From the NCBI RefSeq assembly GCF_000010625.1, contig NC_010296.1:2910001-2942000 (forward strand): 32,000 nt of DNA, written 5' to 3'. Every line of letters starts with the position of its first letter. The first letter of the stretch is position 1. Shown here one piece after another: positions 1-32,000 of the stretch. The DNA comes from Microcystis aeruginosa NIES-843. Lineage in GTDB: Bacteria > Cyanobacteriota > Cyanobacteriia > Cyanobacteriales > Microcystaceae. The notes beneath the pieces were generated by a model, which did not search any database, was not told the DNA's origin, and saw only the letters and a list, made by a program, of their open reading frames with translations. Position numbers and translations under genes: made by a program.

Positions 1-329
1 TATTTGTTGGATAATGGCAGTCATAGAGAGAATTTAGCAATTAGGGATTAGACAAAAATTGAGAAGGAATCGGTTAGCTTCCTAGCAGTAACCAGATTAT
101 GGGTCGAATTAGCTACTGAAGATGCCGATTGATGGTATTCTTTCAAGACTTTTGTGATAATCTTTTGTGGTGTATTCATTATAGTTTCGAGCCAAGGAGA
201 TTAACACTCCAGATAAATCAGGTTATTGACCATCTTACCTTATCATAATCTGAAGACGAATCCAATGCAGCTGGCTGCTGGGAAACATTTGCTTTAATAT
301 AGTAAGTAAGCTTTACCAATAGTACAACC

Positions 330-584
330 ATGTTAGCCAGTTATATTGATCAAGCGATGGCATTAGCTCGATACGAAATCATTGAAGAAGATGGCACTTA
401 TTGGGGTGAAATTCCACCCCTTCAGGGAGTTTGGGCAAATCACGCCAATCTAGAAGATTGCCAGCAAGAATTGCGCGAAGCTTTAAGCGATTGGATTGCT
501 TTGCGTCTGTGTTTAGGTTTGCCGATTCCAGTGTTAGCAGGAATAGATCTTAATCTCCTTCCTCAACCCATGTCTTCAATTTAA
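330..584 (+). CDS. HicB-family (UPF0150-like) type II antitoxin
   Basis: 84-aa ORF. The pattern YEIIEEDGTYWGEIPPLQGVWA...LEDCQQELREALSDWI is typical of small cyanobacterial HicB-like antitoxins. Its stop lies 3 nt before the next ORF. Confidence 0.65.
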   Translation: MLASYIDQAMALARYEIIEEDGTYWGEIPPLQGVWANHANLEDCQQELREALSDWIALRLCLGLPIPVLAGIDLNLLPQPMSSI

Positions 585-587
585 GAT

Positions 588-806
588 ATGCCTAAATTAA
601 CCGCCGTATCATGGCTTAATCTAGTTCAAAGATTACGAGAACTTGGGTTTGACGGTCCCTACGCTGGGGGTAAACACCCTCAAATGCGTCGGGATAATTT
701 AACGATAATTATCCCCAATCCCCATCAAGGTGAAATAGGGGTAGGACTGTTAAAACGCATTCTCAATCAAGCGGGTATTACCAGAGAAGAATGGCTGGGA
801 AAATAG
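588..806 (+). CDS. HicA/YcfA-family type II toxin (mRNA interferase-like)
   Basis: 72-aa ORF tightly coupled to the upstream ORF. MPKL..V.....L..LGF...... GKHPQM...NLTIIIPNPH..EIGVGLLKRILNQAGITREEW matches the HicA/YcfA layout. Confidence 0.6.
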   Translation: MPKLTAVSWLNLVQRLRELGFDGPYAGGKHPQMRRDNLTIIIPNPHQGEIGVGLLKRILNQAGITREEWLGK

Positions 807-828
807 CAGGGAAAACACCGCATTTAAC

Positions 829-1308
829 CTACTGCTTAACCAATAAAACCACGGCATAAACTGCGATACCTTCTTCTCGTCCCACCGGTCCCAATTGTTC
901 GTTAGTAGTGGCTTTAATTCCCACCTGGTCCGGATTAATCTTGAGAGTTGCTGCTAACTTGGCTCGCATCGCAATAAGGTGGGGTTTCATTTTCGGTTTT
1001 TCGGCAATAATTACCGAATCAATATTATTAATCCGCCAACCTTTATCGATAATTAATTGATTAACTTGTTCTAATAATTTTAAACTATTCGCCCCTTGCC
1101 ATTGTGGGTCTGTGGGGGGAAAATAATGACCGATATCGCCTAAACTAAGCGCCCCCAGCATGGCATCCATGATAGCGTGGGTTAAGACATCGGCATCACT
1201 GTGACCCAATAAACCGACAGTATGGGCAATCTCTACTCCTCCTAAAATTAAAGGTCTTCCTGTTACCAATCGGTGGATATCGTAGCCGTTACCAATACGA
1301 ATATTCAT
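829..1308 (-). CDS. ispF: 2-C-methyl-D-erythritol 2,4-cyclodiphosphate synthase
   Basis: 159 aa. The hallmark IspF motifs GYDIHRL and [11 protein letters not shown] are present, and the length is typical. Confidence 0.95.
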
Positions 1309-1345
1309 AGAGCAGTCTCCTTGAAGTTATATTAATTATCTTATC

Positions 1346-1388
1346 GCAAAAGGGAACAAGTTAGGGAAAAGATTTCCCTAACTTGTCC
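1346..1388 (-). terminator. Putative rho-independent terminator (minus strand) between the DUF4276 operon and ispF
   Basis: A near-perfect 16-bp stem (ggAACAAGTTAGGGAAA / TTTCCCTAACTTGTcc) is followed on the minus strand by TTTTG. Confidence 0.4.
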
Positions 1389-1532
1389 TTATTAGTTAAT
1401 TAGCTAGGAAGGATGAACTATTCTGCTGAAGTTTTTCCCAATACAATGAAAGCTTATACTAAATTGATTTTTGATAGTATCATTAACTGCCAATCCAACT
1501 TTAAAAACCCACTTCCCACTTGCCACTCTATA

Positions 1533-1644
1533 CTTGTTAAATAAGATTTAGTATAACTCGATCGCTGTTAAAATTGCGGTAGAATCGGGAGAGGGTTGGG
1601 TTTCATGCTTCAAACCAACCTACGTTCTTTTTAAATAAGATTTA
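1533..1644. repeat. Left copy of a ~100-bp modular repeat (modules A-B-C plus a partial A)
   Basis: 1533-1593 is the reverse complement of 3806-3866 with 1 mismatch. 1575-1629 matches the reverse complement of 3867-3944 apart from a ~27-nt loop insertion. It contains the hairpin GGTTGG...CCAACC. Confidence 0.85.
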
Positions 1645-1855
1645 TAGCGTTTTTCAGTCTGCTGAGGTACAAAAGTTATGGGTTTTAGGCACTCATGCAA
1701 AAGGGAAGAAAAATAGGTGTACCTTACTAGCTTAGGAAACGCTATAGTTAAACACCGAATTTTGAACAATTATGCAACAATTTATTCAACAGTTAAAAAT
1801 CGATTTATCCTTGACAGTGATCTAGCAGTTTCATCATTTACTTTCCTAAATATCC

Positions 1856-2467
1856 TTAGCTAATCATCGCCAATAAACCTTGATAAAAAATCTGAAAACT
1901 AGGAGAACAATTATGAGCAGGAGTCATAAATTGAGAAATTTCTCGGGCTGCTTTCACTTTTTCTAAACCTCCTCGATCATACCCAGCTTTTTGAAGTATC
2001 TTTTCTAAGTTTTCCCAAGTTCCCCCCGTAATTTCATCGGGTTTTCTGTATTTTGCTTGCTGTCCCACATTAGTAGAAACTTTGGGATAGGCTGAGACTA
2101 TAGCCTGAATATCACCAAAAAACCAAGCTTCTAGTTCTTCTATAGCAATTCTATTTAACACCTGAAATGTTTTTTTATCTTCACTAATCGTTTTGGTGAT
2201 CAGTCCTGTTTGTTGGGCAATATTTTCTAACTTTTCTTTGAGCATTTGACAATCTTCATTGTCTCTATCTACAAGAATAATGATTCGATAATCATCGGGT
2301 ATCCAGCATTGATAGCCTTTTAATCGCTCCGGTAGTTTTTTGATTAAATCGGATTTACCTCGAAAGGCATGAATTTTATAGGTGACATTCTCAAATAATA
2401 TTTTAGGTAAAATTTGATTTAAACATTCTTGGGTAGAAAATTCTTCAACTAAAAATTCAAGATGCAC
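1856..2467 (-). CDS. DUF4276-like small protein with Toprim-type acidic motifs, a putative nuclease effector
   Basis: 203 aa. An N-terminal strand FLVEEFST, ILVDRDNED (DxD) and IEELEAWFFGD fit the DUF4276/Toprim-like pattern. The start is 24 nt downstream of the ATPase stop and is preceded by GGAGG. Confidence 0.65.
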   Translation of the reverse strand: MHLEFLVEEFSTQECLNQILPKILFENVTYKIHAFRGKSDLIKKLPERLKGYQCWIPDDYRIIILVDRDNEDCQMLKEKLENIAQQTGLITKTISEDKKTFQVLNRIAIEELEAWFFGDIQAIVSAYPKVSTNVGQQAKYRKPDEITGGTWENLEKILQKAGYDRGGLEKVKAAREISQFMTPAHNCSPSFQIFYQGLLAMIS

Positions 2468-2491
2468 TTTTTCCCTCCTTTGCTATTAAAC

Positions 2492-3679
2492 TTAAATGCT
2501 AGGATTACCCACATCAAAATAGTCCTCCATCCATAATTGACCCAACAAAGCACCATTTTGAATAAATTCCTTAACTCCTTGCATTGCTGAAGTACGTTTA
2601 GCTTGAGTAAAACCATTTTCATCTCGATAAAGTACCCAAACCTCCTCTGGTTTCAAACCATCTACAAAAAAGGGAGAATGAGTTGTTACCATTAATTGTG
2701 TACTTGCGGTCGCTGCCCGACATTCTTCTGCTAATTCAGGTAATAAACGGGGATGAAGATGATTTTCTGGTTCTTCTATTCCCAGTAATTGCGGAGGGCT
2801 TGGATCATATAATATAGTTAAATAAGCCAACATTTTTAAAGTGCCATCGGAGGCAAATTTGGCAAGAATTGGCTCTTGAAAAGGTGCGTCTTTAATTTGA
2901 AGTAAAAGCTGTCCATTCGGCATAATAGATGCTTCTACTTTTTCTAATCTGGGAATTCGACGAGAAAGGGTTTGTAAAATAGATTCTAATCGTTGAGGAT
3001 GATCTTCTTTTAAATATTGAATAACATTAGGTAAATTGTCACCAGTTGGCGATAATCTTTCTTGCGCTCCTGCTTCTGGTTGAGTGCGAGTATTATCTGC
3101 GGTTAAGTAGGAAAGATACCAACTTGTGATAAAACGACGCAAAGCACTAACCCGGGGATGTTTGGCCAATTGTCCGAGGGTACTAACAGCTAAAAATTCC
3201 GGGGAGTCTAATCGTTCAGAGATTCGTTCATCTTTTGGTTTGGGATTTTCTCCACTAATCACTATTCCTCCCCCTTCTTTAAAGTCTAAAAAGCGATAAG
3301 GTTTGCCCTTCGCTCCTTGTCTCCACTGTAACCATTCTTCGGCAACATAAGGGCGATTGTTAGCTTCATTAATAGCCAAATGATAGGTAATTAAAGGTGA
3401 TGCCAATTTTTCTCGATATTTTAATTCGATAATGATGTAACCTTCTTGTCCTCTGGTTCTTAATTCTTTAAATCTTCCCCGTCTGTCCCAAGCTTTTTTT
3501 AAACCAACAGTAAAACATTCAGAGAGGAAAGCAAAGACATCAAATATGGTAGATTTTCCGCTCCCATTAGGACCGAGAAAAACGGTTAAAGGAGTAATGC
3601 TTTTTAATTCTAAGTCCTGTAAAGCTCGGTAATTTTGCACGCGCAGATTTTCGATTCGAGGTATAGAGTTTTTAGACAT
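2492..3679 (-). CDS. ABC-type (AAA_15/AAA_21, OLD/AriA-like) ATPase
   Basis: 395 aa. Walker [10 protein letters not shown], signature-like SDGTLKML, Walker [14 protein letters not shown] and H-loop TTHSPFF are all present. Confidence 0.85.
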
Positions 3680-3805
3680 TGATTGTTGCTCTCTGCTGCT
3701 TTTAGCTCGTCTTGTCCCAGATTAGCTGTTAATTTTCCCAGTTCCCGCAAAAAACTGGTCAATTTTTAGTAATCTCGCTCTTCTGGACTGGTTATAGCAA
3801 ATTAG

Positions 3806-3944
3806 CTCTCCTGATTCTACCGCAATTTTAACAGCGATCGAGTTATACTAAATCTTATTTAACAAGAACGTAGGTTGGGCTTCGGCCGTGAGCTTTTGCC
3901 GAACGGTTGAAGCATGAAACCCAACGCTCTCCCGATTCTACCGC
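3806..3944. repeat. Right, inverted copy of the ~100-bp modular repeat
   Basis: It is the reverse complement of 1533-1629, circularly permuted (B-C'-A-B when read on the minus strand). Module C carries an extra insert, ccgttcggcaaaagctcacggccgaag. Confidence 0.85.
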
Positions 3945-4047
3945 ACTCCGAGTTTTTTCTTGGGGATAATCTCCTAACTTCTGACCATCTACTGTCGATT
4001 ACCGCAAAGGATAGCCATTTATTCTATCAGAATGAGAAGATTTAATT

Positions 4048-4218
4048 ATGATAACACTTGTGATTATGTTTTTCGCTGCCTTGCTGGCAGCTGCCGATTT
4101 TACTTACCAAGTTTTGATTCATTTTCCCGTACAAATCCTCAATTTTTTGGGGTCGTTGTTGTCCTATGGAGTAATCGGACTGATAATTTTCGTCCTAGTG
4201 TGGATTGTGGGTGACTGA
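4048..4218 (+). CDS. Small hydrophobic (about 2-TM) protein, hypothetical
   Basis: The alternative frame to the listed 4032-4214 ORF translates as MITLVIMFFAALLAAADFTYQVLIHFPVQILNFLGSLLSYGVIGLIIFVLVWIVGD. This is far more protein-like than the Cys/Arg-rich listed frame. Confidence 0.35.
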   Translation: MITLVIMFFAALLAAADFTYQVLIHFPVQILNFLGSLLSYGVIGLIIFVLVWIVGD

Positions 4219-4288
4219 TTTCTCGGTAGAAAAAAATGAGAGAATCAGCCTTAGCCAATTCTCCCCAATTTCAGCCAACTTTTAATTT

Positions 4289-7105
4289 TTACTGTTCACT
4301 AGCCACTGCTTGGGGTTGTCCTTGCGGTTGGAATTGGAACAGGGAATAAACCACGTTACGACGGATATCAATCATCATTTCTAAAAACATCTCGTAGCCT
4401 TCCTGTTTATACTCAATTAGGGGGTCTTTTTGACCGTAACCGCGTAAACCAATCGACTCGCGTAAAGCTTCCATAGCTTGCAGGTGTTCGCGCCATAACA
4501 TATCGATTTGTTGCAGGATAAAATAACGTTCGGCATCGCGCATTAAACCGGCGCGAATACTATCCACTTGACGTTCCTTAATTTCGTAGGCTTTGCGAAC
4601 TTCTTCGTGTAGGAACATCTTGATATCATTAACACTCATCTCCTCGACATCTTTAGCGGTAATATCTGCCAACAGATAGACGAATTCCTGAGATTTACTA
4701 ATCAGTTTTTCCAAATCCCATTCTTCCGCCGGCAGTTCGGGATTAACATAAGCCATGACGATTTCATCCATGGTTTTTTCGGCGTATTGCAGCACCTGTT
4801 CTTTTAAGTCCATCCCCTCCAAAACCCGACGACGTTCGGCATAAATAGCGCGTCGTTGATTATTCATCACCTCGTCGTATTCAAACACCTGTTTCCGGGC
4901 ATCATAATAGAAGGTTTCCACTTTTCTTTGCGCGCCTTCCAGGGAACGAGTTAACATTCCCGACTCAATGGGCATATCTTCTTCCACCCGGAAGGCATCC
5001 ATTAAACCCGCCACGCGGTCGCCACCAAAAATCCGCAATAAATTGTCTTCTAGGCTTAAAAAGAAGTGTGTAGAACCGGGGTCGCCCTGTCTGCCCGCCC
5101 GGCCTCGCAATTGGTTGTCAATACGGCGGGATTCGTGGCGTTCCGTCCCGATAACGTGCAGTCCGCCCCTTTCTACTACTTCATCGTGTTCTTTACCCGT
5201 GTAATCTTCATAACTTTTGCGAATTAATTTATAGACTTCCCGTAACTTTTGAATAACCGGGTCATCCGTGGGAGCTTTTTCGGCCGCGATGGCGATTTTT
5301 TCTTCTACTTCTAATTCGGGTAAACTTTGAGTTCCGTGGGTATCAACGGCAAATTTAACCGCTTCTTTCAGGGCATTTTCTACCTCTTTCGGTAACTCGG
5401 TGGGAAAAATTTCCGCCGAGGCACGCCAGTTTTTTTTCTTCTTACCCGGGGCGAATCCTTGCGGGCGATTGCGTTCTCCTAAACTGGGTAAACTAAAGGC
5501 CAAATTGTCATCCTCGGGCATAACTAATTTCGGCATTAAATACTCGCGAATTTTCAATCGGGCCATATAGTCGGAGTTACCACCGAGGATGATATCGGTT
5601 CCCCGTCCCGCCATGTTCGTGGCAATGGTTACGGCCCCGGCCCGGCCTGCTTGGGCGACGATTTCCGATTCCCTTTCCACGTTTTCCGGACGAGCATTAA
5701 GTAAGTTATGGGGAATATTCCTTCCCTGTAATAAAAGCGAAAGCACTTCCGATTTTTCCACACTGGTGGTACCGACTAAAACCGGGCGACCCTGTTCGTG
5801 CATTTGTTGACATTCTTCAGCGACGGCGTTCCATTTTGCCTGTTCATTTTTATAGACCACATCGGCTAAATCTTGCCGACGAGAAACGCGGTTAGTGGGA
5901 ATAATTGTTACTTGCAGGTTATAGACTTTTTCTAGTTCCGTTTCTTCGGTTTTGGCCGTCCCGGTCATGCCAGATAATTTCGGATAGAGTAGGAAAAAGT
6001 TTTGATAGGTAATCGTGGCTAAGGTTTGGGTTTCCTGTTGAATTTCCACCCCTTCCTTAGCCTCCACTGCCTGATGTAAACCATCGCCCCAACGTCGCCC
6101 CGGTAATACCCGTCCCGTGAACTCATCAACAATAACAATTTCACCACTGCGGACGATATAGTTAACGTCTTTTTTCTGGAGTTCTTTGGCACGAATAGCG
6201 TTAGAAATATAGTGCGCCCAGGGATTTTCTTGGTCGTATAAATCGGTAACTCCTAATAGTTCTTCCGCTCTTTTAAAGCCTTCATCGGTCATTAAAACGT
6301 TACGGTCTTTTTCGTTAACTTCGTAGTCTCCCGGTCCGTCTTCTACTTTTTGGCGCACTAATTGCTTGGCGATTTCGGCGGCGAGAATATATTTTTCTGT
6401 GGGTCGATCGATCGGTCCTGATATAATTAATGGAGTTCTGGCCTCATCGATAAGAATGGAGTCCACTTCGTCGATAACGCAGTAGTTAAAGGGTCTTTGG
6501 ACAACTTCCCCCATCACTGTAGCCATGTTATCGCGCAGATAATCGAAGCCGAGTTCGCTGTTAGTGGTGTAGGTGATGTCACAGGCATAATTTTTCTTTC
6601 TTTCTTCCGGACTCATGCCGGCTTGAATTAGTCCCACACTTAACCCTAAAAAGCGGTGTACCTGCCCCATCCATTCCGCGTCACGACGGGCGAGATAATC
6701 GTTAACGGTGACGACGTGAACCCCTTTTCCGGTCAATCCATTCAAATAAGCGGGGAGAGTGGCAACCAGGGTTTTTCCTTCCCCGGTTTTCATCTCGGCG
6801 ATTTGTCCTTTGTGCAGTACCATTCCCCCCAATAACTGCACGTCAAAGTGACGCATCCCTAAGACTCGGATTCCCGCTTCCCGGACAATGGCGAAAGCTT
6901 CGGGGAGGATTTCCTCGAGAATCTCCTCTCTTTCGTCATAATTTCTGGCTTTGTCTAATCTTTCCTTAAATTCGCTGGTTTTGCTCCTTAATTCCTCATC
7001 GGACAGGTTTTTAATGTCTTCTTCCAGCAGGTTGATTTCGGTGACGAGGGGCTGAAATTTTTTAATTTTGCGGGCGTTGGGGTCTCCGAGTAGGGCTTTT
7101 AACAT
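4289..7105 (-). CDS. secA: Preprotein translocase ATPase SecA
   Basis: 938 aa, with canonical SecA sequence throughout ([62 protein letters not shown]). Confidence 0.97.
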
Positions 7106-7207
7106 AGCAGTTTTTATTCTCTCGCTTCGATTGGCTCTTGGTCTGTGGTGTTAACAATTGTATCACTCTCGTTGGGAGTGGAGAATCATTTATCGGTGAA
7201 CAGGGAC

Positions 7208-7856: not shown

Positions 7857-10800
7857 TTAACTAAAGGGGAAACCACCATATTTATGGATAATTATATCTA
7901 TAGTTTCCATAATTGCGATCGATTCGCCCAAAATGGAGATAATTTGTTGATAATGTTCTAGGTCATCGTAGCTAAGGTGGCGACCTTTGCGGTCTTTTAG
8001 CCACTTCTGACACACTTGATAACCGCCGATATAAAAGTTCCAAATTTGAGGCGGAATCCCCGCAAAATACTGGTCAGAATTAATCGAAATTTGTTGTTTA
8101 TTTTCGTCATATTTCACCTGTTCGACTAGATTAGAACCCGCCACGGGATAGCTACTAATTTCTTTTCCCGTTGCTTTCATCAGGTGTAACTGTACTAATC
8201 TGTCACCTTTTTTGACTAATTCCCAGAATAATTCTTTATTACTGGTGAGAGGAACGCGAGGAAAGTCTATTTTTAAAAATTCGGCGTAACGTTGGCGATA
8301 TTGGGGAGAGTGAAAGACCGCATAGATATAGTTAAAAATGTCTTCTGGTCCAAAGGTTTTCTTTTCGTCTCCTTTGCCATCACTGATAAATTCTAATTCA
8401 AGTTTTGCCGAAAGTTTGTTAATAAATTCTGGCGCTAGATTGGGACGGCGACCATTTGGCGAGTTGGTTGGTTCTGTGTCAAATAGCGTTGGGGTATTGG
8501 TTGGGTAAAGATAGAGGGGAAAAATATTAACTCCACCTCTTCTAAAAATATTAGTATCAATGGCATTCTCAAAAACAGTAATCAAGGCCCATTCAGGATC
8601 ATTAACCGCAATTCCTTGACGACCTATACCTATACCAATGTTATTCTTATTCATCGTATGCTGAATTATTTCATGCCTCAACCGATTTACTAAAGCATCA
8701 TGATGATAATAAGGTCTAATATCAAGAGGTCTATATAAACATTGAGTGAAATAAGATTGCCAATTAGATTCAGATGTAAAAGATTTTCTCTTTTGATTTA
8801 AATTCCAATCTAAACTGTCTTCCAACTTATATTTATTTTTTATTTCTGAATCATTTATAAGTGTATTTCTAAAGTCATTGATTCGCTCGATTAATTTAGC
8901 TTTATCAAAATCATAGACAAAGTGATCTCTATGGGTTTTGATACCAGAACCGTTTGTCAACATGATTGTATCAAGTTCCCAATATTTTTGATATTCATCA
9001 GATGAGACTTTGCTCTGAGGATTAAATAGGTAAAAATCTGATTTGGGATTTATAATTTCCCATTCAGTTGAACTAATATCATTTTCATCTAACCAATAAT
9101 ACTTACCCCCAACTAACTCCTTATGCTCTTTAACCTCTCTAACACCCCACAAATCAGCATGATAAACCTGCGCTAAATCTTGCTGACTATCTTGATACTT
9201 AATAAAAAACGCAATCGCTACTCCTTGCTGAATATCAAACACATTTTGATCGGTTGAACCATCGGGACAAACTTCTTTTTTCTTGCTATTCCCATGCAAA
9301 TCTAAAACATAAATCTCATCAAAAGTCTGCATCAAATTTTGACGCATTCCCCGAAAAGTGGGATTATCCAAATAACCATGATTTGTAATTAACGCCACAA
9401 CTCCATAACCAGTTTCCGCTACCCGATACTGAGCAAAGCGAATAAACTTCACATAATCATCTAATAAACCTTTAGGGTTTCTCTCTCCCAATGGTTTTCC
9501 ATCTAATTGATAATAATCCTTAACCAAATTCACAATCCAAGGGTCAGTATTCATCGACTGATAGGAATAGGGTGGATTGCCTAAAATCACCATAACTGGC
9601 ATTTCTTGCTTAACATCTTTTGCCGCGGCTGCTTCATCGCGAATACGATTTAAAAAACCATCAGCAGGGGGAATTTGAAAAGCTTCCTGTAGGGTGTTGG
9701 TGAGATAGATTCCCAAGCGTTCATCGGCACTAAAATCATAGCCTAATTCCTGAAGTTGTAAACCTAATTTCATGTGTGCTACGGTGTAGGGAGCCATCAG
9801 TAATTCAAACCCAAAGAGACGGGGTAATAAATGTTTACTGACATAACTAGACCACATCCCTTTCTGTTGACGAAAACTATCATAGATATGGTCGATAACA
9901 GAGTGTAAAAAAGTGCCTGTTCCCACAGCAGGATCGAGGATTAAAACTTGGTGAACTTCCTGAGTTTCTTGGCTATTATTAGGATTTTTAATCGTAATTT
10001 TTTTGGCATCGGCCAAACCTTTAGGAATCTGAAACTTATTTTTTAGAATATAGTCCACACTGCGAACCATGTAAGAAACCACGGGTTCAGGGGTATAATA
10101 AACCCCCCTAGACTCACGCATTTTACTATCGTATTCGGCTAAAAAAGTCTCATAAAAGTGAACTACAGGATCCTGCTTGCGCGTGCGTTTTCCAAAGCTG
10201 CCGAGAATCCCCTCCATATCCGTTTGTTGTAAAATAGTCGCTAGAGTATCCACGGCCCAAGTAATCCGCTCATCTAATTCTGTACCAGCAATTTGATGAA
10301 AAATTCCCCGCAAAAAAGGGTTAGTTTTCGGTAGTCGAAATCCCGCCGTTTCCCTGGAAAAAGAACTTATTTGATCCGTATTACAGCGTGCTGCGAATAA
10401 ACCATAACAGATTGTTTGTGCATACATATCCGCGAACTGCGCTTCATTGAGATCACTAATTAAAACTCGTTGAAAAGATTGCAATTGTTGCCGCAACATT
10501 CCCCCACAATCTTGATCTTTTAAAGCTTGGCCGATTGCGTCTCTAATTAACTGCGCTAAAGCGGCCATTTTTTTGGCTAATTCTCGCGGTGTTGTGATCT
10601 GAATAACTTTTGAGAGGAAAAACTGACAGAACAATTGTTCTACTTGTAAAATACCCTGGGAATCAGGTTTAATTTGCTTTTTTTGATTAAGACTTGCCAC
10701 GGCAGCTGATAGACGCAATTCTCCCGATACATACCAACGAAATTCTAAATGATCGGTGATAATTAAATTACCCAAAGCCTGTAAATAACGTTTTATTTGG

Positions 10801-11072
10801 GGAGTATTTTCAACCTTTTTGAGAGAAGTTCCGATATCTTTTGCTTCCAGATGGCCAACTTCTACCATACCCTGATTAATCACAAAATCCGGAGCGCCAC
10901 AAGCAATCCTTTTGGGTTCATTGAGAGCTTGTAGGTTATTATTTAGGGATTCAATTAATTTTTTTAAAGCAGGACGATAACTGTGTTCTGTGGCCTTACC
11001 CTGTTGATAAATGCCTGTGATTTCCTCTAGATATTTTGGCAGTGAGTTACTCATTATCGTTGCGACATACAA
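7857..11072 (-). CDS. Single-polypeptide type IIG/IIL (MmeI-like) restriction endonuclease plus N6-adenine DNA methyltransferase, with a Type-ISP-like C-terminal domain
   Basis: 1071 aa. The N-terminus has a PD-(D/E)xK motif (GAPDFV ... GHLEAKD). SAM motif I is ILDPAVGTGTF and catalytic motif IV is GNPPYS. The C-terminus reads FPRVPLTS...LHLM and GGYQVCQKWLKDRKGRHLSYDDLEHYQQII, as seen in Type ISP / PglX-like C-terminal domains. The start may instead be Met7 (11054). Confidence 0.8.
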   Translation of the reverse strand: MYVATIMSNSLPKYLEEITGIYQQGKATEHSYRPALKKLIESLNNNLQALNEPKRIACGAPDFVINQGMVEVGHLEAKDIGTSLKKVENTPQIKRYLQALGNLIITDHLEFRWYVSGELRLSAAVASLNQKKQIKPDSQGILQVEQLFCQFFLSKVIQITTPRELAKKMAALAQLIRDAIGQALKDQDCGGMLRQQLQSFQRVLISDLNEAQFADMYAQTICYGLFAARCNTDQISSFSRETAGFRLPKTNPFLRGIFHQIAGTELDERITWAVDTLATILQQTDMEGILGSFGKRTRKQDPVVHFYETFLAEYDSKMRESRGVYYTPEPVVSYMVRSVDYILKNKFQIPKGLADAKKITIKNPNNSQETQEVHQVLILDPAVGTGTFLHSVIDHIYDSFRQQKGMWSSYVSKHLLPRLFGFELLMAPYTVAHMKLGLQLQELGYDFSADERLGIYLTNTLQEAFQIPPADGFLNRIRDEAAAAKDVKQEMPVMVILGNPPYSYQSMNTDPWIVNLVKDYYQLDGKPLGERNPKGLLDDYVKFIRFAQYRVAETGYGVVALITNHGYLDNPTFRGMRQNLMQTFDEIYVLDLHGNSKKKEVCPDGSTDQNVFDIQQGVAIAFFIKYQDSQQDLAQVYHADLWGVREVKEHKELVGGKYYWLDENDISSTEWEIINPKSDFYLFNPQSKVSSDEYQKYWELDTIMLTNGSGIKTHRDHFVYDFDKAKLIERINDFRNTLINDSEIKNKYKLEDSLDWNLNQKRKSFTSESNWQSYFTQCLYRPLDIRPYYHHDALVNRLRHEIIQHTMNKNNIGIGIGRQGIAVNDPEWALITVFENAIDTNIFRRGGVNIFPLYLYPTNTPTLFDTEPTNSPNGRRPNLAPEFINKLSAKLELEFISDGKGDEKKTFGPEDIFNYIYAVFHSPQYRQRYAEFLKIDFPRVPLTSNKELFWELVKKGDRLVQLHLMKATGKEISSYPVAGSNLVEQVKYDENKQQISINSDQYFAGIPPQIWNFYIGGYQVCQKWLKDRKGRHLSYDDLEHYQQIISILGESIAIMETIDIIIHKYGGFPFS

Positions 11073-17420: not shown

Positions 17421-17667
17421 GGGATTTGTTGTTGCATTGATCGGACAATACCTCATGAGCCTTTCTCTGTCAACTCTTAAGGAGTCGTGCGTTTCATTTT
17501 TGAATTGGCGATTTAAGATCAGTTTTGTTTAAGTATCTTTTACCATGACTTCTACATCGAACTTTCAGCCGACGATAGTCTCAGAGTTTTAGCCGACCTC
17601 GAACTCAGGCTAGTTGCTCATTTTCACCGCAAAAACTGCATCCATAAATTTATCGCCGAATTTTAGC

Positions 17668-19557
17668 ATGGAAATTGACACAATACTGCAGCAAATTGAT
17701 ATTGGAGAAGACCAAGAATATGAGTTTAAATCAGCCGAGGGAGGCTTGCCAAAAGACATTTGGGAAACTCTTTCAGCTTTCGCTAATACCGATGGCGGTT
17801 ACATTATTTTGGGTGTTAGCGAAAAGAAACCTAGATTAGAAATTACAGGAGTGCGTAACCCTAAAAATCTTCAACAAGAGTTTTGGGATAACCACAACAA
17901 CCGACAAAAACTGAATATATCTATCTGTTCTAATTCAGACGTAGAAGTAAAAAAGATTAATGAATATCAGCTTCTCATTATTCATATTCCTAGAGCTACC
18001 CGAACTCAGCGTCCTGTATATATTAACAATAACCCAATGACTGGTACATATAAGCGAAATTATGAGGGAGATTATCGCTGTCATAAGGAGGAAATAGAGC
18101 AAATGTTTCGCGATGCCAGCAATGAACCTCAAGATTTTCAAGTTTTAGATAATTTTAATCTCAACGATATTGATCCTGATACTCTGAAAGTATTTCGCCA
18201 ACGGTTCAGCAATCGCGAACCCGATCATCCTTGGTTAGCATACAATGATCAACAATTACTCCATCAGTTAGGAGGATGGCGACGAGATAGAAATTCTAGC
18301 AAAGAAGGATTAACTGTAGCGGGTTTACTCATGTTTGGACGAGAACGCAGTATTTTAGATGCTTTCCCCCATTATAGTCTCGACTATCAGGAAAAATTAT
18401 CTGACGATCCTGAAAAAAGATGGACATATCGCTTAACTCTTGATGGTAAATGGGAAGCTAATTTACTTAACTCTTATTATCGTGTTTATGGCAGATTAAT
18501 TAATAATTTAGATGTTCCTTTTCAATTAGACAAAGATGCCGTTCGTAAAGATGAAACCCATGTTCATGAAGCTTTAAGAGAGGCTTTAGTTAATACTTTA
18601 ATCCACGCCGATCACCAGTCTTCACGGCCTATAAAGGTGGTAAAATCTATCGATGGCTATCTATTTTCTAATCCCGGTCGTCTGAGAATTCCCCTACAGC
18701 GTCTCTATGAAGGCGGTACTAGCGATCCTCGTAATCCTCATCTACAAAAAATGTTTCAAATGCTCGGATTAGGTGAAAAAGCTGGCTCTGGATTTGGGAA
18801 AATTCTTCGTGCTTGGAAAGAACAACAATGGTTGAGTCCCCTAGTTTCGGAAAAACTTGACCTAGAAGTTACATCTGTTAATTTACCGATGACAAGTTTT
18901 ATTCCCGAAGCAGTTGAAGTGGAATTAAAAAGGATTATCGGGGATGCTTACCGTCAGTTAGGTGATCTTGATAGGATAATATTAGTATTAGCGCATCAGT
19001 TTGAGGAAATTAGTAATACTGACATTCAGCGTTATCGATCAGAACATCCCAGAGATATTAGCGAACGCCTTCGTAATTTAGTTCAAAATGGCTGGTTACA
19101 CCAGTCAGGTAAGTGTCGGGGAACACGCTACACCCTACCGAACCAGAATTCTTCAGCGCAACTTTCTCTATTACCAAGCTCCGAACATTACCCACCAAGC
19201 TCCGAACATTACCCACCAAGCTCCGAACATTACCCACCAAGCTCCGAACATTACCCACCAAGCTCCGAACATTACCAACAGTTAGAGGCAATTGCTGAAC
19301 CCATACGCAGAAAAGGCCGCATTAGTAAAGACTCGGTACGAAAAGTGATTCTTGAACTATGCTCCCAACAATATCTACCCCTCGGAACATTAGCTCAACT
19401 GCTCGGAAGAGAACCTGATACTATTCGTAATCACTATGTCAACCCGATGATAGATGAGGGATTGCTGGAGCTTAAACACCCCCAACTAAGGAACCATCCT
19501 CAACAAGCTTATCGAACAGTATCTCGATCGCATTTCCTATCAGCGCAAGATGAGTAA
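17668..19557 (+). CDS. Schlafen/AlbA_2 (divergent AAA) plus HATPase_c_4-type protein with two C-terminal winged-helix modules; usually annotated as a putative transcriptional regulator or ATP-binding protein
   Basis: The N-terminus EDQEYEFKSAEGGLPKDIWETLSAFANTDGGYIILGV is a typical AlbA_2 domain. The middle region reads HEALREALVNTLIHADH...NPG. The tail ends HPQLRNHPQQAYR. I prefer the ATG at 17668 over the TTG at 17614 listed in the track. Confidence 0.8.
   Translation: MEIDTILQQIDIGEDQEYEFKSAEGGLPKDIWETLSAFANTDGGYIILGVSEKKPRLEITGVRNPKNLQQEFWDNHNNRQKLNISICSNSDVEVKKINEYQLLIIHIPRATRTQRPVYINNNPMTGTYKRNYEGDYRCHKEEIEQMFRDASNEPQDFQVLDNFNLNDIDPDTLKVFRQRFSNREPDHPWLAYNDQQLLHQLGGWRRDRNSSKEGLTVAGLLMFGRERSILDAFPHYSLDYQEKLSDDPEKRWTYRLTLDGKWEANLLNSYYRVYGRLINNLDVPFQLDKDAVRKDETHVHEALREALVNTLIHADHQSSRPIKVVKSIDGYLFSNPGRLRIPLQRLYEGGTSDPRNPHLQKMFQMLGLGEKAGSGFGKILRAWKEQQWLSPLVSEKLDLEVTSVNLPMTSFIPEAVEVELKRIIGDAYRQLGDLDRIILVLAHQFEEISNTDIQRYRSEHPRDISERLRNLVQNGWLHQSGKCRGTRYTLPNQNSSAQLSLLPSSEHYPPSSEHYPPSSEHYPPSSEHYPPSSEHYQQLEAIAEPIRRKGRISKDSVRKVILELCSQQYLPLGTLAQLLGREPDTIRNHYVNPMIDEGLLELKHPQLRNHPQQAYRTVSRSHFLSAQDE
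19174..19278. repeat. Perfect 21-bp tandem repeat x5 (ccaagctccgaacattaccca), in frame within the CDS
   Basis: Read directly from the sequence. It encodes (PSSEHYP)x5, and only the last unit differs, at its end. Confidence 0.97.
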
Positions 19558-22389: not shown

Positions 22390-24729
22390 TCAGATTTCTG
22401 GTTTTTTTAAAATGAACTCGATCGAGGCAAAAACCGCAGATAATTCTAGTTTAGTTGACGAGGAGAGTTTCTGGTAAACTTCGGCAATTTGATTAGAAAA
22501 ACTATAGACTAATTTATTCTCCATATAGAGAGGATGTCCAATATAGTGGGAATCTTTAAGAATTTTTTTCAGTTTGTTGACTCGCTTCGGTGGAACAATT
22601 AACACAAGTTTTCCTGCCAGTTCTGGATAAATTTTTAGTAATTCCATAAAGCGATCGATTCCTGTGGTGATCGGTGTACTGGTTTCTACTTCAAAAGCGA
22701 ACACTGCATCGCCTAAGTTATTAAACCAGATGAGATCGATCTGTTGTATTTTATCTCTGTCCCACTTTCCTAATTTATCGATCGGTAATTTTTCTAGAGA
22801 AATATCTTTAAAAGCTTCTCCATTCCAATAACCTGTAGATTGTTCTTTTTTGCCAATATAAGGCTTTAATCCGACAGCAATAGCAATTTTTGCCAGAGCG
22901 TAGATAATTTGATCGTGAGGAATTTTATCTGCTTGTTTGGGAAAATCTAAACCAGTTAAAACGGAAGAAATTGGCTCTATATTTAAATCGAGAGTTAGCT
23001 GAAGACCTTCTTCTTGCCCTAGTTGCCAGTGCCGACCATCGGGAGAATAAGCTAACTTTTCTAAAACCTTTAAAATCGATTGATCGCTTGGTGTTGTCCC
23101 GTTGATCAGGTTAGGCATGACCGCAAAAATAATTTCATCAAAAGTTGCTACTTTTCCCTGTCGTTTTTTGGCAGTTAGAAAATCCAAGAGATAAAATCTT
23201 ATTCGATCTTCTAGCGGAATAAAGCAACCGATTTTCGTATTTGTACGAATTCTCCAGAGATGATCTAATTCCGAAAAGTTGAATTCCTCTTTTAACAAAG
23301 GAGTAATATCATCTATTTGTTTCTTGACTTGGGTTAGTAAGCCATTTTCCAATAATTTAGGAATGAGCGCATTATAAATATCTTCTGTGGAAGCACCCGA
23401 ACTTTTAACGATTGTCATCTCGGCCACTTCTTTAATAATTTGCAGGATATCGATCCCGACTTTACTGATGGCGATTGTTTTGGGATTATTCACTTTTCTA
23501 AAGTTTAAAACTAACTCTCCCGATAGGACAGTCAGAGGATTTTTCTTTTTGTGTAATGAGGGCGTAGTAGAATGTTGTACAGAGGAATTTACATACTCAA
23601 AACCAGCTTCTTGAGCAGATTTAACGATCGCATCCCAATAGGCGGGATCTTTGTGAGCAAAAACAATACTCATCCAGCGATCAAATTTCAAAACTCGAAA
23701 CATTTCTCGAATGGAATTCGATAACAAATTGATGTAAGTTTCTTTCGATTTCTTTAAATCTCCTCCTTCGATCGCTTCCAATTCTCTTGCGTTATCGCTC
23801 ACTTCAAATCCTAGCCAAGCATTCCACATAGTCGAGAGATCTAAATAGGCAATATGTTGTCCGTAGGGAGGATCGGTATAGATATAATCCACGGATTCGG
23901 ACGATATGCCAGTTAAGTCCGTCGCTGAGAAATCAAAAATTGAAAAATTTTCTTGATAAAAATCACCGATTACTGTATTAGTTTCGATCTTGAATTTTGC
24001 CGTCCCCTTAAATTTCTGCTCAAATTGTTCCCAGACATTAAGATCGATAGTTTGAGGAGGAATCCAATAGCGATAACGGTGCATAATTCCGCTATTTCCC
24101 CGGCTTTCTATTCTTCCTCTCGTGGAACTAAAGGTTAAATTGGTTTTATTGAGAGTTGCCGAGAAAGTAAACCTCATTAAATCTTTAATGATCGGATCGG
24201 TGATTAATTCAATCTGGTTGAGAATTAGAGAAAGGGAAAATAATTGACGTTTGGTAAACAAATTTTCTACAGATTCTGCGTCCGCATTTTTCGGTAAACG
24301 AACCCCTTGCGGATACCAATAGGGAATCTCTAAATCCGCCGCTTCTTCTGGAGACATTCGATAAACTTCCTCAATCTTTTCCTGACAATTTCTGGCGATG
24401 TCATCGAAAGCAGACCGAAAATCATCGATGTTAACGGGACTAACAGCGATATTGCGGCAGATAAAACCAGCCATCGGGTTAATATCCGAGTAAATCGCCT
24501 TTCGCTTTAAAACTAGAGCCTCTACCGCAGTCACTCCCGATCCCCCAAAGGGATCTAAAACCACATCTCCCACCTGACTAAAACGCTTAATATATTCCTG
24601 TACCACATTCCAAGCGCGCCGGGTAAAATAGGGATGACTTCCCCAATGGCGTAACGTCCCTTGTTTTTTGGGATCGATCGGCCCAGAAATGGGATCGATC
24701 ATTCTATAGTCGAAGGAGGAAGCACTCAT
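22390..24729 (-). CDS. DNA (N6-adenine/N4-cytosine type) methyltransferase with a ~370-aa uncharacterised C-terminal extension that ends in a possible PD-(D/E)xK-like domain
   Basis: 779 aa. SAM motif VLDPFGGSGVT lies at aa 57-67 and catalytic TDPPYG at aa 285-290. The C-terminal region reads IDLIWFNNLGDAVFAFEVETS (aa ~664-684). Confidence 0.85.
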   Translation of the reverse strand: MSASSFDYRMIDPISGPIDPKKQGTLRHWGSHPYFTRRAWNVVQEYIKRFSQVGDVVLDPFGGSGVTAVEALVLKRKAIYSDINPMAGFICRNIAVSPVNIDDFRSAFDDIARNCQEKIEEVYRMSPEEAADLEIPYWYPQGVRLPKNADAESVENLFTKRQLFSLSLILNQIELITDPIIKDLMRFTFSATLNKTNLTFSSTRGRIESRGNSGIMHRYRYWIPPQTIDLNVWEQFEQKFKGTAKFKIETNTVIGDFYQENFSIFDFSATDLTGISSESVDYIYTDPPYGQHIAYLDLSTMWNAWLGFEVSDNARELEAIEGGDLKKSKETYINLLSNSIREMFRVLKFDRWMSIVFAHKDPAYWDAIVKSAQEAGFEYVNSSVQHSTTPSLHKKKNPLTVLSGELVLNFRKVNNPKTIAISKVGIDILQIIKEVAEMTIVKSSGASTEDIYNALIPKLLENGLLTQVKKQIDDITPLLKEEFNFSELDHLWRIRTNTKIGCFIPLEDRIRFYLLDFLTAKKRQGKVATFDEIIFAVMPNLINGTTPSDQSILKVLEKLAYSPDGRHWQLGQEEGLQLTLDLNIEPISSVLTGLDFPKQADKIPHDQIIYALAKIAIAVGLKPYIGKKEQSTGYWNGEAFKDISLEKLPIDKLGKWDRDKIQQIDLIWFNNLGDAVFAFEVETSTPITTGIDRFMELLKIYPELAGKLVLIVPPKRVNKLKKILKDSHYIGHPLYMENKLVYSFSNQIAEVYQKLSSSTKLELSAVFASIEFILKKPEI

Positions 24730-26302: not shown

Positions 26303-28999
26303 TCAGCAAGCCCGAGTTAATCTAGCAATAAAAGCCATAGCTTCGCTTTTATTGCTGACCATTCCATCTAAAGTTGCCCCCAACACCGCCGCAAGTAACG
26401 ATTTAAACTGGGGACCCGGTTGATAACCCAAAGCTTTTAGGTCATTGCCGTCGATAGGAGCCTCAATCTGCGACCATTTAGTTAAATATTGCCAGATTAA
26501 AGCCCGAATCCTAGTCTGACTCCTCACCGCCACCAGTAACAAACTAGGAACCCTATAACCATTGAAAAAGCTGACAATTTGACTAACGGGTTGATCATAA
26601 GCAAAATTATTGCTAATCTCCCTTTCCATAACTTCTAGTTTTTGTAAACGCTCCACAGTATCTTTGGGCAATTGTAAATTATTAGCGATCGCTATTCTTT
26701 CCCCCACAGCCAGAGAAGCGATTAATAATTCCAACCGCATTAACCAAGCATTCACCGGCAATTCCAGACTTAAACAATCTAACCAACGACTAAGACAGCG
26801 CAATTGTCGCCATAAAGCTTGATTTAAACTTAAATTCCCGTGTAAACAGTGCAAAGCCCCCAACTCAGCCAACTTTTCCAAGGCACTTTCCCAGTAATCC
26901 GCCTCTAAAATATAATTCAACTCCGCTTTTAAACGGGACTGTAAAGCGGGTGCATTCTGATTTTGTTGCCGTGAGCGCTCATAAACTCCACTTTCGATCG
27001 CATACCTAATATAGTTTTCTGTCAAGGGTTCAATAACAAATCCTAACCGAGTGGCAAAACGCACCGCTCGATAGATGCGCGTCGGATCCTCAATAAAACT
27101 ATTAGCGTGGAGAACCCGGATTTCTTGAGCGCGTAAATCCAACATACCGCCAAAAAAGTCGAGTAATTCCCCCTCTTTCGGCGAAGTTAGGCGAATTGCC
27201 AGAGAATTAATTGTAAAATCCCTTCTATACAAATCCTGTCGAATCGAACTAGCCTCCACTTGGGGATTACTGGCGGGATAGGGATAGAATTCCGTGCGTG
27301 CCGTGGCGATATCCACCCATAACGAGCCAAAACGCTCATCTTTGTGCCATAACAAAGCCGCCGTCTGAAATTCCCCGTGAATCGATAACCGGGCCCCCGG
27401 ATAAATTTCGCGTAAACAATTAGCCAATTCTACCCCCGCACCCACACCGGCGGCGCGATGGCAGCCATCCACCACTAAATCGATATCCTGTAACAATAAA
27501 GTATCCCTTTCTGCCGCTAACAATAAATCGCGCACCGCACCCCCAACCAGATAGAGATGCCAACCGCGTTTTTGAGCGGCAGCGGCGGCAGATTGCAGAA
27601 ATGACCATAAAACCGGCTCTAAACGCTCTTTAATCGTCGGTAAAAGACAGGAAACCAAAGCAACCCCTTCAAAACGCACCCGCTCATTTTGATGAATCTG
27701 TCTTAATACATCTGTACGAGTGACGATACCGACTAACTGCCCATTTTCTAGTACAGGTAAACGCCCTAAATCATACGTTACCATCAGTGACTCGATTTCC
27801 TGAAGGGAAGTGTCGGGGGTAATAGTTTTCGGATTACAAGTCATGTATCCCTTCACGGGAGAGCGAGAAAAGCCGTGATGGAGAGCTAAATCGAGGTCAC
27901 GACGAGAAATCACCCCAACTAAGCGATCCTGCTCATCTACCACCGATAAACCCGAATGGCCGTAACGGAAAAGGATGCGCTCGGCTTGAGATATAGAAGT
28001 ATCGGGACGAATTGTTCGCACCGGGGAAGACATTAAATCCCTCGCGGTGGGAGAGGGAGGAATTTGGGCAATTAAGTCCCCCAGCAGTTGGTTTAACTGT
28101 TGAACTGGCTGAACATCGCGAAAACTCACCGAAGCGGCCTGAGCATGACCACCGCCGTTATAGGGGGAAAAAAGCTGATATAGATTCACTCCATCGATCC
28201 TAGAGCGACCAATCACAGTTAAACGCTGTCGGGACTTATCTTCCTCGTTTTTACTATAACTATGACCGAAAAGTAGTGCATCACTATCGGATAATTCCAG
28301 TAGGCGCTCGGCCAGACTAGACAAACCGGGGATAAAATCGGCAGTATGGAGGAGAACGTGGGCGATTTTACGGTCATGGATCGTTTTAATCTCTAGATTT
28401 TCCCAAGCAAGGCTAAATAACTCCTGTAAGCGCGGGGAAAAACTCGGTTGACAGTATTGGGCGATCGTTTTAATGTTAGCAGCACAGGTCATTAACCAAG
28501 CCAAAGCATAGGCATCCCTGGGGGTACTACCGGCAAAAGTCAGGGAACCCGTGTCAACGTGAATACCGAGTGCCATTACCGTCGCTGCCATCGAGTTTGG
28601 TTTAATCTGGGCTTTTTGTAAAGCTTCGACAATTAAAGTCGTGGTGGCTCCCACCGCTTCTAAATGGACGCTAGAGGCATGAATATCGCTTTCACTATCC
28701 AAATGATGATCATACAATTCGATCGCCTGTAAATGCCCTAAATCGAGCCACTGGGAGGCTTTTCCCAGACGCTCTCGCCACTGATTATCAACGATAATTA
28801 AAGAGCGAATACTGGCCGGATTGACACTACGCATTTCAATTAAAGCGAACTCATCCCGATGCAGGGCCAAAAATTCCCTTACTGTTGGGTGCGCTCCCCC
28901 CGTTAACACAATGCGACTACCCGCTTTCAGCAACGATAAACCCACCGCTGCCCCCAAAGCGTCAAAATCCGCCGTTTGATGACATAAAATTAAATCCAT
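26303..28999 (-). CDS. Multidomain DHH/DHHA1 phosphoesterase, CBS pair and poly(A) polymerase / CCA-adding nucleotidyltransferase family protein
   Basis: 898 aa. The N-terminus has DFDALGAA and YDHH (DHH). Two CBS-like repeats follow (PVRTI...GLSVVD and TITPD...[17 protein letters not shown]). Then come [11 protein letters not shown] and RRDFTINS, the nucleotidyltransferase head. Confidence 0.85.
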
Positions 29000-31100: not shown

Positions 31101-32000
31101 TCATGGTGCGTCCCACAGTCTGGACAATCCCATTCTCGAACATTTAACGGCATTTTCAAGGGCAATATACCCGCAATTACTACACCTTTTAGAGCTAGGA
31201 AACCATCTATCTATTTCGATGTAGTTTCTCCCATACCAACGGCATTTATAGGCTAATTGTCGGGTAATTTCTCCCCAGCTTACATCAGATATTGCCTGAG
31301 ATAATTTCGGGTTTTTGACCATATTCTTGACGGCTAAATTCTCAACCACAATCGTTTGGTTTTCCCGAACTAATTGAGTGGTTAGCTTGTGTAAATGGTC
31401 TTTCCTGCTATCGGTGATTTGAGCGTGAATTTTGGCTAATTTGATTCTTGCCTTTTCTCGATTCTTTGAGTCTTTCTGTTTTCTAGAAATATTTTTCGAT
31501 GCTCTTCGCAACCTCTGATAATGCTTTTTAAAATGCTTGGGATTAGACACTTTATCGCCATCGCTGGTAATCACGAGGCTACTAATTCCTAAGTCAATTC
31601 CGATGGCTTTATCTGTTACTGGTAATGGCTTAATCGTTGGGTCATCAAATCTTATTGAAATATGCCAACGTCCAGAAGGATGTAATCTGACTGTTACTGT
31701 GCTTGGTTCACAGCTTTCTGGTATTTGTCTTGACCATCGAATAGGTAAGGGTTCTGTGCATTTGGCTAAATAGATTTGTTTGTCTTTAAATTTAAAAGCA
31801 GACTTGGTAAATTCGGCACTTCCTCCTTGATGTTTTTTCTTAAAGTTAGGATACTTAGTACGACCAGCAAAGAAGTTAGTGAAAGCTGTTTGTAGGTGTC
31901 TTAACCCTTGTTGTAAAGGTACACAGCTTACTTCGTTTAAAAAGTTTAATTCTTCTTGTTTTTTCCACTCGGTTAGCATTGAAGAAGTTTGAGCGTAGCC
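30956..32000 (-). pseudogene. tnpB: IS200/IS605-family TnpB (OrfB) RNA-guided-nuclease homologue, frameshifted and running off the window edge
   Basis: RuvC-I is IGIDLGISS and RuvC-II is IVVENLAVKNM. The zinc finger CSNCGY is in one frame. The remainder, [27 protein letters not shown] (RuvC-III), is in another frame. The frames switch near an A4/T4 run at 31153-31156. Confidence 0.85.

Follow-up and report, generated by a model that had tools for sequence, protein, structure and literature searches.

A mobile ABC ATPase-Toprim gene pair of Microcystis aeruginosa matching the candidate phage-defence system HEC-01

The locus and its genes

A stretch of 32,000 nucleotides (nt) from Microcystis aeruginosa NIES-843 (contig NC_010296.1, positions 2,910,001 to 2,942,000), which was analysed as a whole and is called here the window, contains two adjacent genes placed between the housekeeping genes ispF and secA. 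They code for an ATPase of the ATP-binding cassette (ABC) type and for a small protein of the DUF4276 family. Profile searches clearly assign the pair, as a plain member, to HEC-01 (Hma-embedded candidate 01), a candidate phage-defence system already catalogued in PADLOC-DB v2 (Payne et al., bioRxiv 10.1101/2024.01.29.577857). All the positions given below follow the numbering of the window, in which the module core occupies 1749-3801. The module and its two flanking genes are composed as follows.

2492-3679, minus strand: HEC-01A, ABC-type (AAA_15/AAA_21) ATPase of 395 amino acids (aa); open reading frame (ORF) with start ATG, identified by Pfam and PADLOC
1856-2467, minus strand: HEC-01B, stand-alone DUF4276 protein of 203 aa; ORF with start GTG, identified by Pfam and PADLOC
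2468-2491, minus strand: intergenic spacer of 24 nt at the operon junction, with AGGAGG at 2479-2474, 6 nt upstream of the GTG
3680-3801, minus strand: 5' leader and presumed promoter region, shared together with the module; upstream core edge at 3801, from the L009 alignment
1749-1855, minus strand: 3' untranslated tail of the module; downstream core edge at 1749, where the L009 alignment ends
829-1308, minus strand: ispF (YgbB), flanking gene, identified by Pfam
4289-7105, minus strand: secA, flanking gene, identified by Pfam

The TAA stop codon of the ATPase gene is read at 2494-2492 and the GTG start of the DUF4276 gene at 2467-2465. A first-pass annotation, made from the letters of the DNA, had described genes for 395-aa and 203-aa proteins, a 24-nt gap with a ribosome-binding site, and a pair richer in AT than ispF and secA, between which it is placed; the ORFs, the AGGAGG in the spacer, the Pfam matches of the flanks and the base composition all bear this out. 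Indeed, the guanine plus cytosine (GC) content is 34.2% in the DUF4276 gene and 38.5% in the ATPase gene, against 42.9% in ispF, 46.8% in secA and 42.2% in the whole window, while third-position GC is 0.24-0.25 in the pair versus 0.39-0.48 in the comparison set. A consensus scan for promoters and terminators detected a hairpin followed by a T-run at 4265-4238, which terminates secA and is the sole clear terminator there; since secA has its own terminator, the HEC-01 pair represents a separate transcription unit. The same scan gave no convincing sigma-70-like promoter upstream of the ATPase gene, the counts being near the shuffle expectation, and it did not support a candidate spotted by eye, TTGACC-19 nt-GAAAAT at 3762-3732.

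Assignment to HEC-01

Both proteins were searched against the Pfam, PADLOC-DB and NCBIfam profiles. The ATPase matches the PADLOC model PDLC04182 (HEC-01A) with an E value of 1.1e-175 and 582 bits, residues 7-392 covering profile positions 2-404 of 406; the DUF4276 protein matches PDLC04202 (HEC-01B) with 7.7e-99 and 328 bits, residues 1-202 covering positions 1-201 of 204. These end-to-end matches, obtained for two adjacent and co-directional genes, identify the module as HEC-01. At the level of the system, the 24-nt spacer and the common strand agree with what we take to be the HEC-01 rule, namely adjacent A and B genes.

HEC-01 was published as the combination of an ABC ATPase with a TOPRIM protein, the latter with a metal-binding site in common with BpOLD (bioRxiv 10.1101/2024.01.29.577857). 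DUF4276 has also been placed already in the Toprim superfamily, as a homologue of Mad4 (PMC12065111), and the paper on the PARIS structure groups MADS3-4 and AbiL with the systems that pair an ABC ATPase with a TOPRIM protein (PMC11464382). The MANTIS preprint proved to have no bearing on HEC-01. Thus, the identification has little discovery value in itself: any PADLOC run would label the pair HEC-01, and published work already covers both its logic and the placing of DUF4276 among Toprim proteins. The first-pass annotation had recognised an ABC ATPase plus Toprim logic, analogous to OLD, Gabija and PARIS and using a different small partner family, and this view is supported; the PADLOC comparison that it had proposed returned HEC-01 models for both proteins. 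Its further statement, that the partner family is experimentally uncharacterised, still holds for the mechanism, but homologues have been tested with phages and the system was catalogued as HEC-01.

The ATPase HEC-01A

HEC-01A is an ABC-type ATPase, in which every nucleotide-binding motif is intact. Walker A (GPNGSGKST, residues 36-44), a signature-like motif (SDGTLKML, 277-284), Walker B with the catalytic glutamate (298-310) and the H-loop (TTHSP, 332-336) are all present, as previously annotated; in an alignment of 37 homologues G36, N38-K42, S277-T280, E302, E303 and H334 are invariant. In Pfam the protein matches AAA_21 (6e-30) and AAA_15 (2e-20), together with SMC_N and AAA_23 over the N-terminal P-loop region. 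Besides HEC-01A, other PADLOC models were matched far more weakly, i.e. AriA (3.7e-30), mad3 (1.5e-23), AbiLi and PtuA, and the NCBIfam MAD3 equivalog NF047739 gave 1e-33 and 117 bits, the cut-off being 420. The solved structures nearest by sequence are those of PtuA, class 1 OLD, AriA and Rad50, aligned in the regions of the nucleotide-binding motifs only; with the AriA PDB chain the similarity is marginal (5e-4). The ABC fold of HEC-01A was asserted from structure predictions by the discoverers of the system (bioRxiv 10.1101/2024.01.29.577857).

The DUF4276 protein HEC-01B

HEC-01B matches Pfam DUF4276 with an E value of 4.8e-31, over positions 1-191 of 192. No other Pfam family was matched even at E<=10, including DUF4435 and Toprim-OLD (PF20469), and at E<=0.01 the PADLOC matches were limited to HEC-01 models. 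At 50% identity the family is divided into about 1,400 clusters; of its best 150 representatives, nearly all are about 200 aa long and stand alone. Searching the PDB with the DUF4276 alignment profile returned chance matches to yeast Cep3 only, and no solved sequence relative was found.

An AlphaFold2 model of HEC-01B, based on an alignment of 79 homologues, has a pLDDT (predicted local distance difference test) score of 89.8 and a predicted template modelling (pTM) score of 0.87. Its elements follow the order b1(2-7)-a-b2(29-34)-a-b3(60-67)-a-b4(103-108), continued by a helical C-terminal half; the core agrees with that of the Toprim superfamily, a sheet of four parallel strands with helices on its flanks. 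Foldseek comparison of the model with the PDB gave as the top three matches 6njx, 6nk8 and 6njv, which are C-terminal catalytic regions of class 2 OLD proteins from Xanthomonas and Burkholderia (probability 1.0, E 4e-4 to 1e-3, template modelling score 0.44-0.53, about 15% identity); the alignments extend over about 215-225 columns and cover the whole protein, Toprim core and helical region alike. A fold search of the same model against viral predicted structures gave nothing significant. On the basis of the model, HEC-01B is a stand-alone protein of predicted Toprim fold, and in structure it comes nearest to the nuclease regions of class 2 OLD proteins.

The conservation of the residues is consistent with this fold. 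Among the 79 sequences there is no variation at E8, G37, D69, E110, E111, E113 and K170, and at least 90% conserve D67. The hallmarks of Toprim domains are a glutamate at the b1/a1 junction, a glycine after b2 and a DxD motif after b3 (PMC6755086); in HEC-01B, E8 lies just past b1, G37 after b2 and D67/D69 at the end of b3. The active site of BpOLD comprises E400, D455/D457, T506/E508 at the start of the first post-Toprim helix, and K562 of the helical domain (PMC6755086), and to these residues we infer that E8, D67/D69, E110/E111/E113 and K170 run parallel. The acidic motifs FLVEEFST, ILVDRDNED and IEELEAWFFGD, starting at residues 5, 64 and 109, had been read in the first-pass annotation as a Toprim-type metal site fitting DUF4276; Pfam, the fold search and residue conservation agree with that reading, and the structure prediction and fold comparison suggested there yielded a Toprim-like fold with an acidic site and OLD as the best match. 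HEC-01B is predicted to be a metal-dependent nuclease effector.

Comparison with related systems

With the published HEC-01 the Microcystis pair has in common the gene order, the adjacency, the composition (an ABC ATPase and a stand-alone TOPRIM protein of the DUF4276 family) and the conserved metal site. The architecture is identical; the Microcystis copy differs in being free-standing between housekeeping genes, rather than contained in an Hma system, and in being bracketed by an inverted repeat. The best structural matches of HEC-01B are the class 2 OLD proteins (BpOLD 6NK8, XccOLD 6NJX), in the group of class 2 OLD and Gabija GajA, and HEC-01B conserves putative counterparts to the class 2 OLD residues of metal A (Glu, DxD) and of metal B (acidic) and to the helical-domain lysine. 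OLD and GajA also have an AAA_15/21-type ABC ATPase; however, they are single polypeptides, whereas HEC-01 consists of two ORFs separated by a stop codon and the 24-nt spacer. The two ORFs and the lack of a PF20469 match at E<=10 rule out membership in OLD. Gabija is ruled out as well, because the downstream neighbour of the pair is ispF and not a UvrD/PcrA-like helicase gene (GajB).

PARIS shares with HEC-01 the layout of two genes, the first for an ABC ATPase of the AAA_15/21 type and the second for a distinct Toprim nuclease, and the AriA models were matched at 3.7e-30; moreover, the co-evolution of the pair described below resembles that reported for AriA and AriB (PMC11464382). Unlike AriB, which is a DUF4435 protein, HEC-01B matches DUF4276 only, and HEC-01A has 395 aa versus 464 residues in the AriA PDB chains; the pair is not a PARIS system, since no DUF4435 or AriB match was obtained in Pfam or PADLOC. 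As to MADS, Mad4 is a DUF4276 homologue and Mad3 an AAA_15/21 ATPase (PMC12065111, PMC11464382), and HEC-01A does match mad3 models. MADS is, however, a multi-gene methylation-associated system, while the neighbours of the pair are ispF, hicAB and secA; the 117 bits obtained with NF047739, against its cut-off of 420, and the absence of other mad genes rule out membership in MADS.

An accessory cassette in Microcystis

The module is bracketed by the two arms of an inverted repeat, found by repeat search.

1533-1644, unstranded: arm of the inverted repeat on the side of ispF, with a length of 112 nt and 97-98% complementarity to its counterpart
3806-3945, unstranded: secA-side arm of the inverted repeat, 140 nt, corresponding to 1.2 units of a repeat of about 121 nt

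The repeat unit of about 121 nt holds a GGTTGGGTTTCATGCTTCAA..CCAACC hairpin. Within the 32-kb window a 19-mer of the repeat is confined to the flanks of the module, with 0 occurrences expected, while copies of a 23-nt core are scattered over other parts of Microcystis DNA; the copy number of the repeat differs between strains. Scans of the window gave no Rfam or tRNA match for the repeat, and no transposase or integrase is found within the module core.

Comparison with other Microcystis sequences revealed several states of the locus. An empty site was searched for by scanning metagenomes with IspF; contigs retrieved by exact-protein IspF matches broke within the repeat. In the metagenome contigs L094 and L095 (7003-8000) HEC-01 is missing and about 1 kb separates secA from ispF; their SecA and IspF are 98% and 94% identical to those of the window. 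The homology with the window ends precisely where the repeat has its outer edge, at 3945, and one partial repeat copy is present. The presence of empty sites in close relatives indicates that loss of the module is tolerated. In L013 and L014 the flanks are again ispF and secA, and the segment corresponding to 1768-3878 lies between them in inverted orientation (L013 6994-14432 compared with window 1-7207). One junction of the inverted form of L013 falls inside the repeat, and the other side carries an extra 480 nt, which include a 172-nt piece of the 3' end of a peptidase-M1 gene. A second location was found in L009 (1-2100) and L015 (8556-10496), where the 2.05-kb core (window 1749-3801) adjoins the peptidase-M1 gene; in L009 the core is 99.9% identical to that of the window, and both flanks are different. 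The piece of the peptidase-M1 gene beside the module in L013 hints that the peptidase-M1 locus may have been the donor.

In Microcystis, the HEC-01 module is thus accessory and mobile, and represents a self-contained cassette, probably acquired horizontally. The empty site, the inversion and the second location favour an island-like nature of the module, and the uniform core synteny of homologues, which the first-pass annotation had named as speaking against its view, is not seen, given these empty, inverted and relocated states and the 48 gene contexts described below. Microcystis is an ecologically important bloom-former, and its near-isogenic chromosomes with the module, without it, or with it inverted or relocated provide a natural experiment on a possible role of HEC-01 in cyanophage susceptibility.

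The same observations bear on the possibility that the pair serves housekeeping DNA repair or recombination, in the manner of RecF (an SMC-like ABC ATPase) and RecR (a Toprim protein). The RecF, Rad50 and SMC_N models matched over the N-terminal P-loop region of HEC-01A, the Toprim fold of its partner and the housekeeping genes on both sides are in keeping with such a function. However, the RecF and Rad50 matches are weak and span only about 45 residues; the pair is missing from the same site in close Microcystis relatives and inverted or relocated in others, it is AT-rich compared with the genome, and its synteny is not kept. Furthermore, HEC-01B conserves a complete acidic nuclease site, which RecR is not known to need. 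A repair function is therefore highly improbable.

Linkage and distribution

Homologues were searched in one genome per species, which yielded more than 527 relatives, and the best 80 loci were kept for the analysis of gene context and linkage. The ATPase gene lies directly upstream of the DUF4276 gene, on the same strand, in 78 of these 80 loci; of the other two, L014 is cut off by a contig end short of the ATPase position, and L047 has a different ORF of 422 aa and no detectable ATPase. Pairwise identities of HEC-01A and HEC-01B, compared over 61 pairs from the genome loci L011-L090, are correlated (r=0.80, Mantel test, p=0.001), which indicates that the two proteins are passed on and evolve together, as one unit. 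Along the ATPase the degree of conservation is even, also when cyanobacteria are compared with Desulfobacterota or Nitrospirota.

The window is 99.5-99.9% identical to AP019314.1, and among the best 80 loci the closest relatives are from Microcystis, with 96-99% identity. The 80 loci correspond to 48 unrelated gene contexts. Non-cyanobacterial loci belong to Desulfobacterota, Nitrospirota, WOR-3 and one short contig binned as Methanothrix, with identities of 54-60% for the nuclease and 71-76% for the ATPase; the number of contexts, together with the presence of the pair in several non-cyanobacterial phyla, points to its horizontal transfer. Only 3 relatives were found among 2.9 million viral contigs.

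In one uncultured bacterium (L069 3035-10455) three ATPase paralogues occur in a row; behind the second and the third there is in each case a DUF4276 gene (34% and 59% identity with the query), and behind the first an unannotated ORF of 233 aa. This array looks like a tandem diversification of HEC-01-like modules.

The gene contexts are also informative on the idea that the pair may be a satellite of a methylation or restriction system, comparable to Mad3-Mad4 in MADS and to HEC-01 in Hma, with the Type IIG/ISP enzyme coded at 7857-11072 as its partner. HEC-01 was indeed discovered embedded in Hma systems (bioRxiv 10.1101/2024.01.29.577857), Mad4 is a homologue of DUF4276 and Mad3 a related ATPase (PMC12065111, PMC11464382), and HEC-01A matches mad3 (PADLOC 1.5e-23, NCBIfam 1e-33); in addition, the Type IIG/ISP enzyme is 4.2 kb off, and HmaC, PglZ or a Type I restriction endonuclease (REase) adjoins a few homologous loci. 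On the other hand, secA with its own terminator stands between the pair and the restriction enzyme, the enzyme is missing from L008, which has the module, the module of L009 and L015 lies at the other locus, and across the 48 contexts the pair alone is conserved. Moreover, the 117 bits with NCBIfam MAD3 are far under 420 and no other mad genes are present. Dependence on a restriction partner is thus quite improbable.

Proposed role and mode of action

The best explanation of the locus, which we regard as moderately probable, is that of a horizontally acquired HEC-01 operon, coding for an ATPase-controlled two-metal nuclease that would act against phage. By analogy with OLD, Gabija, PARIS and the Mad3-Mad4 pair of MADS, an oligomer of HEC-01A would sense an infection cue, and its binding or hydrolysis of ATP would hold or license the HEC-01B nuclease. 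HEC-01B would then cleave nucleic acid by two-metal catalysis, with metal site A made up of E8, D67 and D69, metal site B of E111/E113, and K170 acting in support at the scissile phosphate; phage or other mobile DNA would be blocked in this way, through either the destruction of the invader or the arrest of the infected cell. The substrate may be either DNA, the target of OLD and GajA, or tRNA, the target of AriB.

A more specific, PARIS-like abortive version appears unlikely, though conceivable: a highly conserved ATPase scaffold would release the DUF4276 nuclease, which would cut host RNA such as tRNA, and the Microcystis module would be a cyanophage-defence cassette that moves and flips by homologous recombination at the short dispersed repeat, without a recombinase of its own. 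If this were true, phage susceptibility would differ among natural strains according to whether they have the module, lack it or carry it inverted.

Several observations are in favour of a role of the HEC-01 operon in defence. In E. coli B, a HEC-01 system from a cold seep gave protection from one or more of the phages T4, T5 and T7 (PMC12881386). As for the neighbourhood, HicAB and the Type IIG/ISP enzyme are near the module in the window, and some homologues are found beside HmaC, PglZ, Type I REase, PtuA, Ppl or DUF499. A tally of 133 immediate neighbours in 41 contexts, expressed as family counts only, showed that defence genes are a minority, represented by HmaC, DUF499, PglZ, Type I REase, PtuA, Ppl, PD-T4-6 and HEPN.

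Other data weigh against the proposed role, or against details of it. Most immediate neighbours of the homologous pairs are ordinary metabolic genes, so that there is no strong defence-island signal, and according to the discoverers most candidates of this kind are not enriched near defence systems (bioRxiv 10.1101/2024.01.29.577857). The mean identity of the ATPase across phyla, 77%, is higher than the 62% of the nuclease (61 pairs), which is unusual for a presumed sensor. The AlphaFold2 model of HEC-01A, for which the available homologues were all at least 80% identical, has a pLDDT of 48, too low for a comparison of folds; the active-site geometry proposed for HEC-01B was drawn from sequence position and secondary structure. 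With regard to phage protection, the text of PMC12881386 gives no effect size for HEC-01.

Moreover, the first phage test of a HEC-01 homologue was negative (bioRxiv 10.1101/2024.01.29.577857), a result that also lends itself to a different explanation, in which the pair is a selfish addiction cassette, similar to a toxin-antitoxin system, made of a nuclease toxin checked by the ATPase and kept because its loss is costly, rather than for protection from phage. A unit of two genes that is compact and mobile, patchily distributed and transferred across phyla would suit such an element, and toxin-antitoxin genes do occur nearby (HicAB here, DUF433-PIN in sister strains). This explanation is improbable: intact empty sites exist in close relatives (L094/L095), and one homologue did give protection against phage (PMC12881386); addiction, besides, overlaps with abortive-infection defence and does not exclude it. 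Considering that an empty site is tolerated, that the pair keeps its autonomy in varied contexts and that it is distributed as an accessory element, all three alternatives, i.e. repair, restriction satellite and addiction, are less likely than the defence operon proposed here.

Other genes in the window

On the far side of ispF, at 330-806, the window codes for a toxin-antitoxin pair formed by a HicB-like protein (UPF0150) and HicA. A DUF433-PIN_10 pair is present in the sister contigs L001-L003 and not in the window. Between secA and the repeat, at 4048-4218 on the plus strand, there is an ORF for a strongly hydrophobic protein of 56 aa, called as a gene in all the sister contigs; its DNA is present also in the empty-site contigs, and the ORF is therefore part of the flank and not of the module.

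Beyond secA, positions 7857-11072 code for a 1071-aa Type IIG/Type ISP restriction-methyltransferase (PADLOC 8e-275), which matches mad2 at 1e-8 only. The region around it is variable in sister strains: the enzyme is missing from L008, and a Peptidase_M78 gene and an unknown gene are inserted in this region in L003, L006 and L007. Other defence- or mobility-related genes are dispersed among housekeeping genes, and code for a Schlafen AlbA_2/HATPase_c_4 protein (17614-19557), a DNA methyltransferase of 779 aa (22390-24729) and an IS605 OrfB/TnpB-like protein (31101-31979). Finally, an 898-aa protein coded at 26303-28999 is a fusion of DHH/DHHA1, CBS and poly(A) polymerase/CCA-adding head domains.

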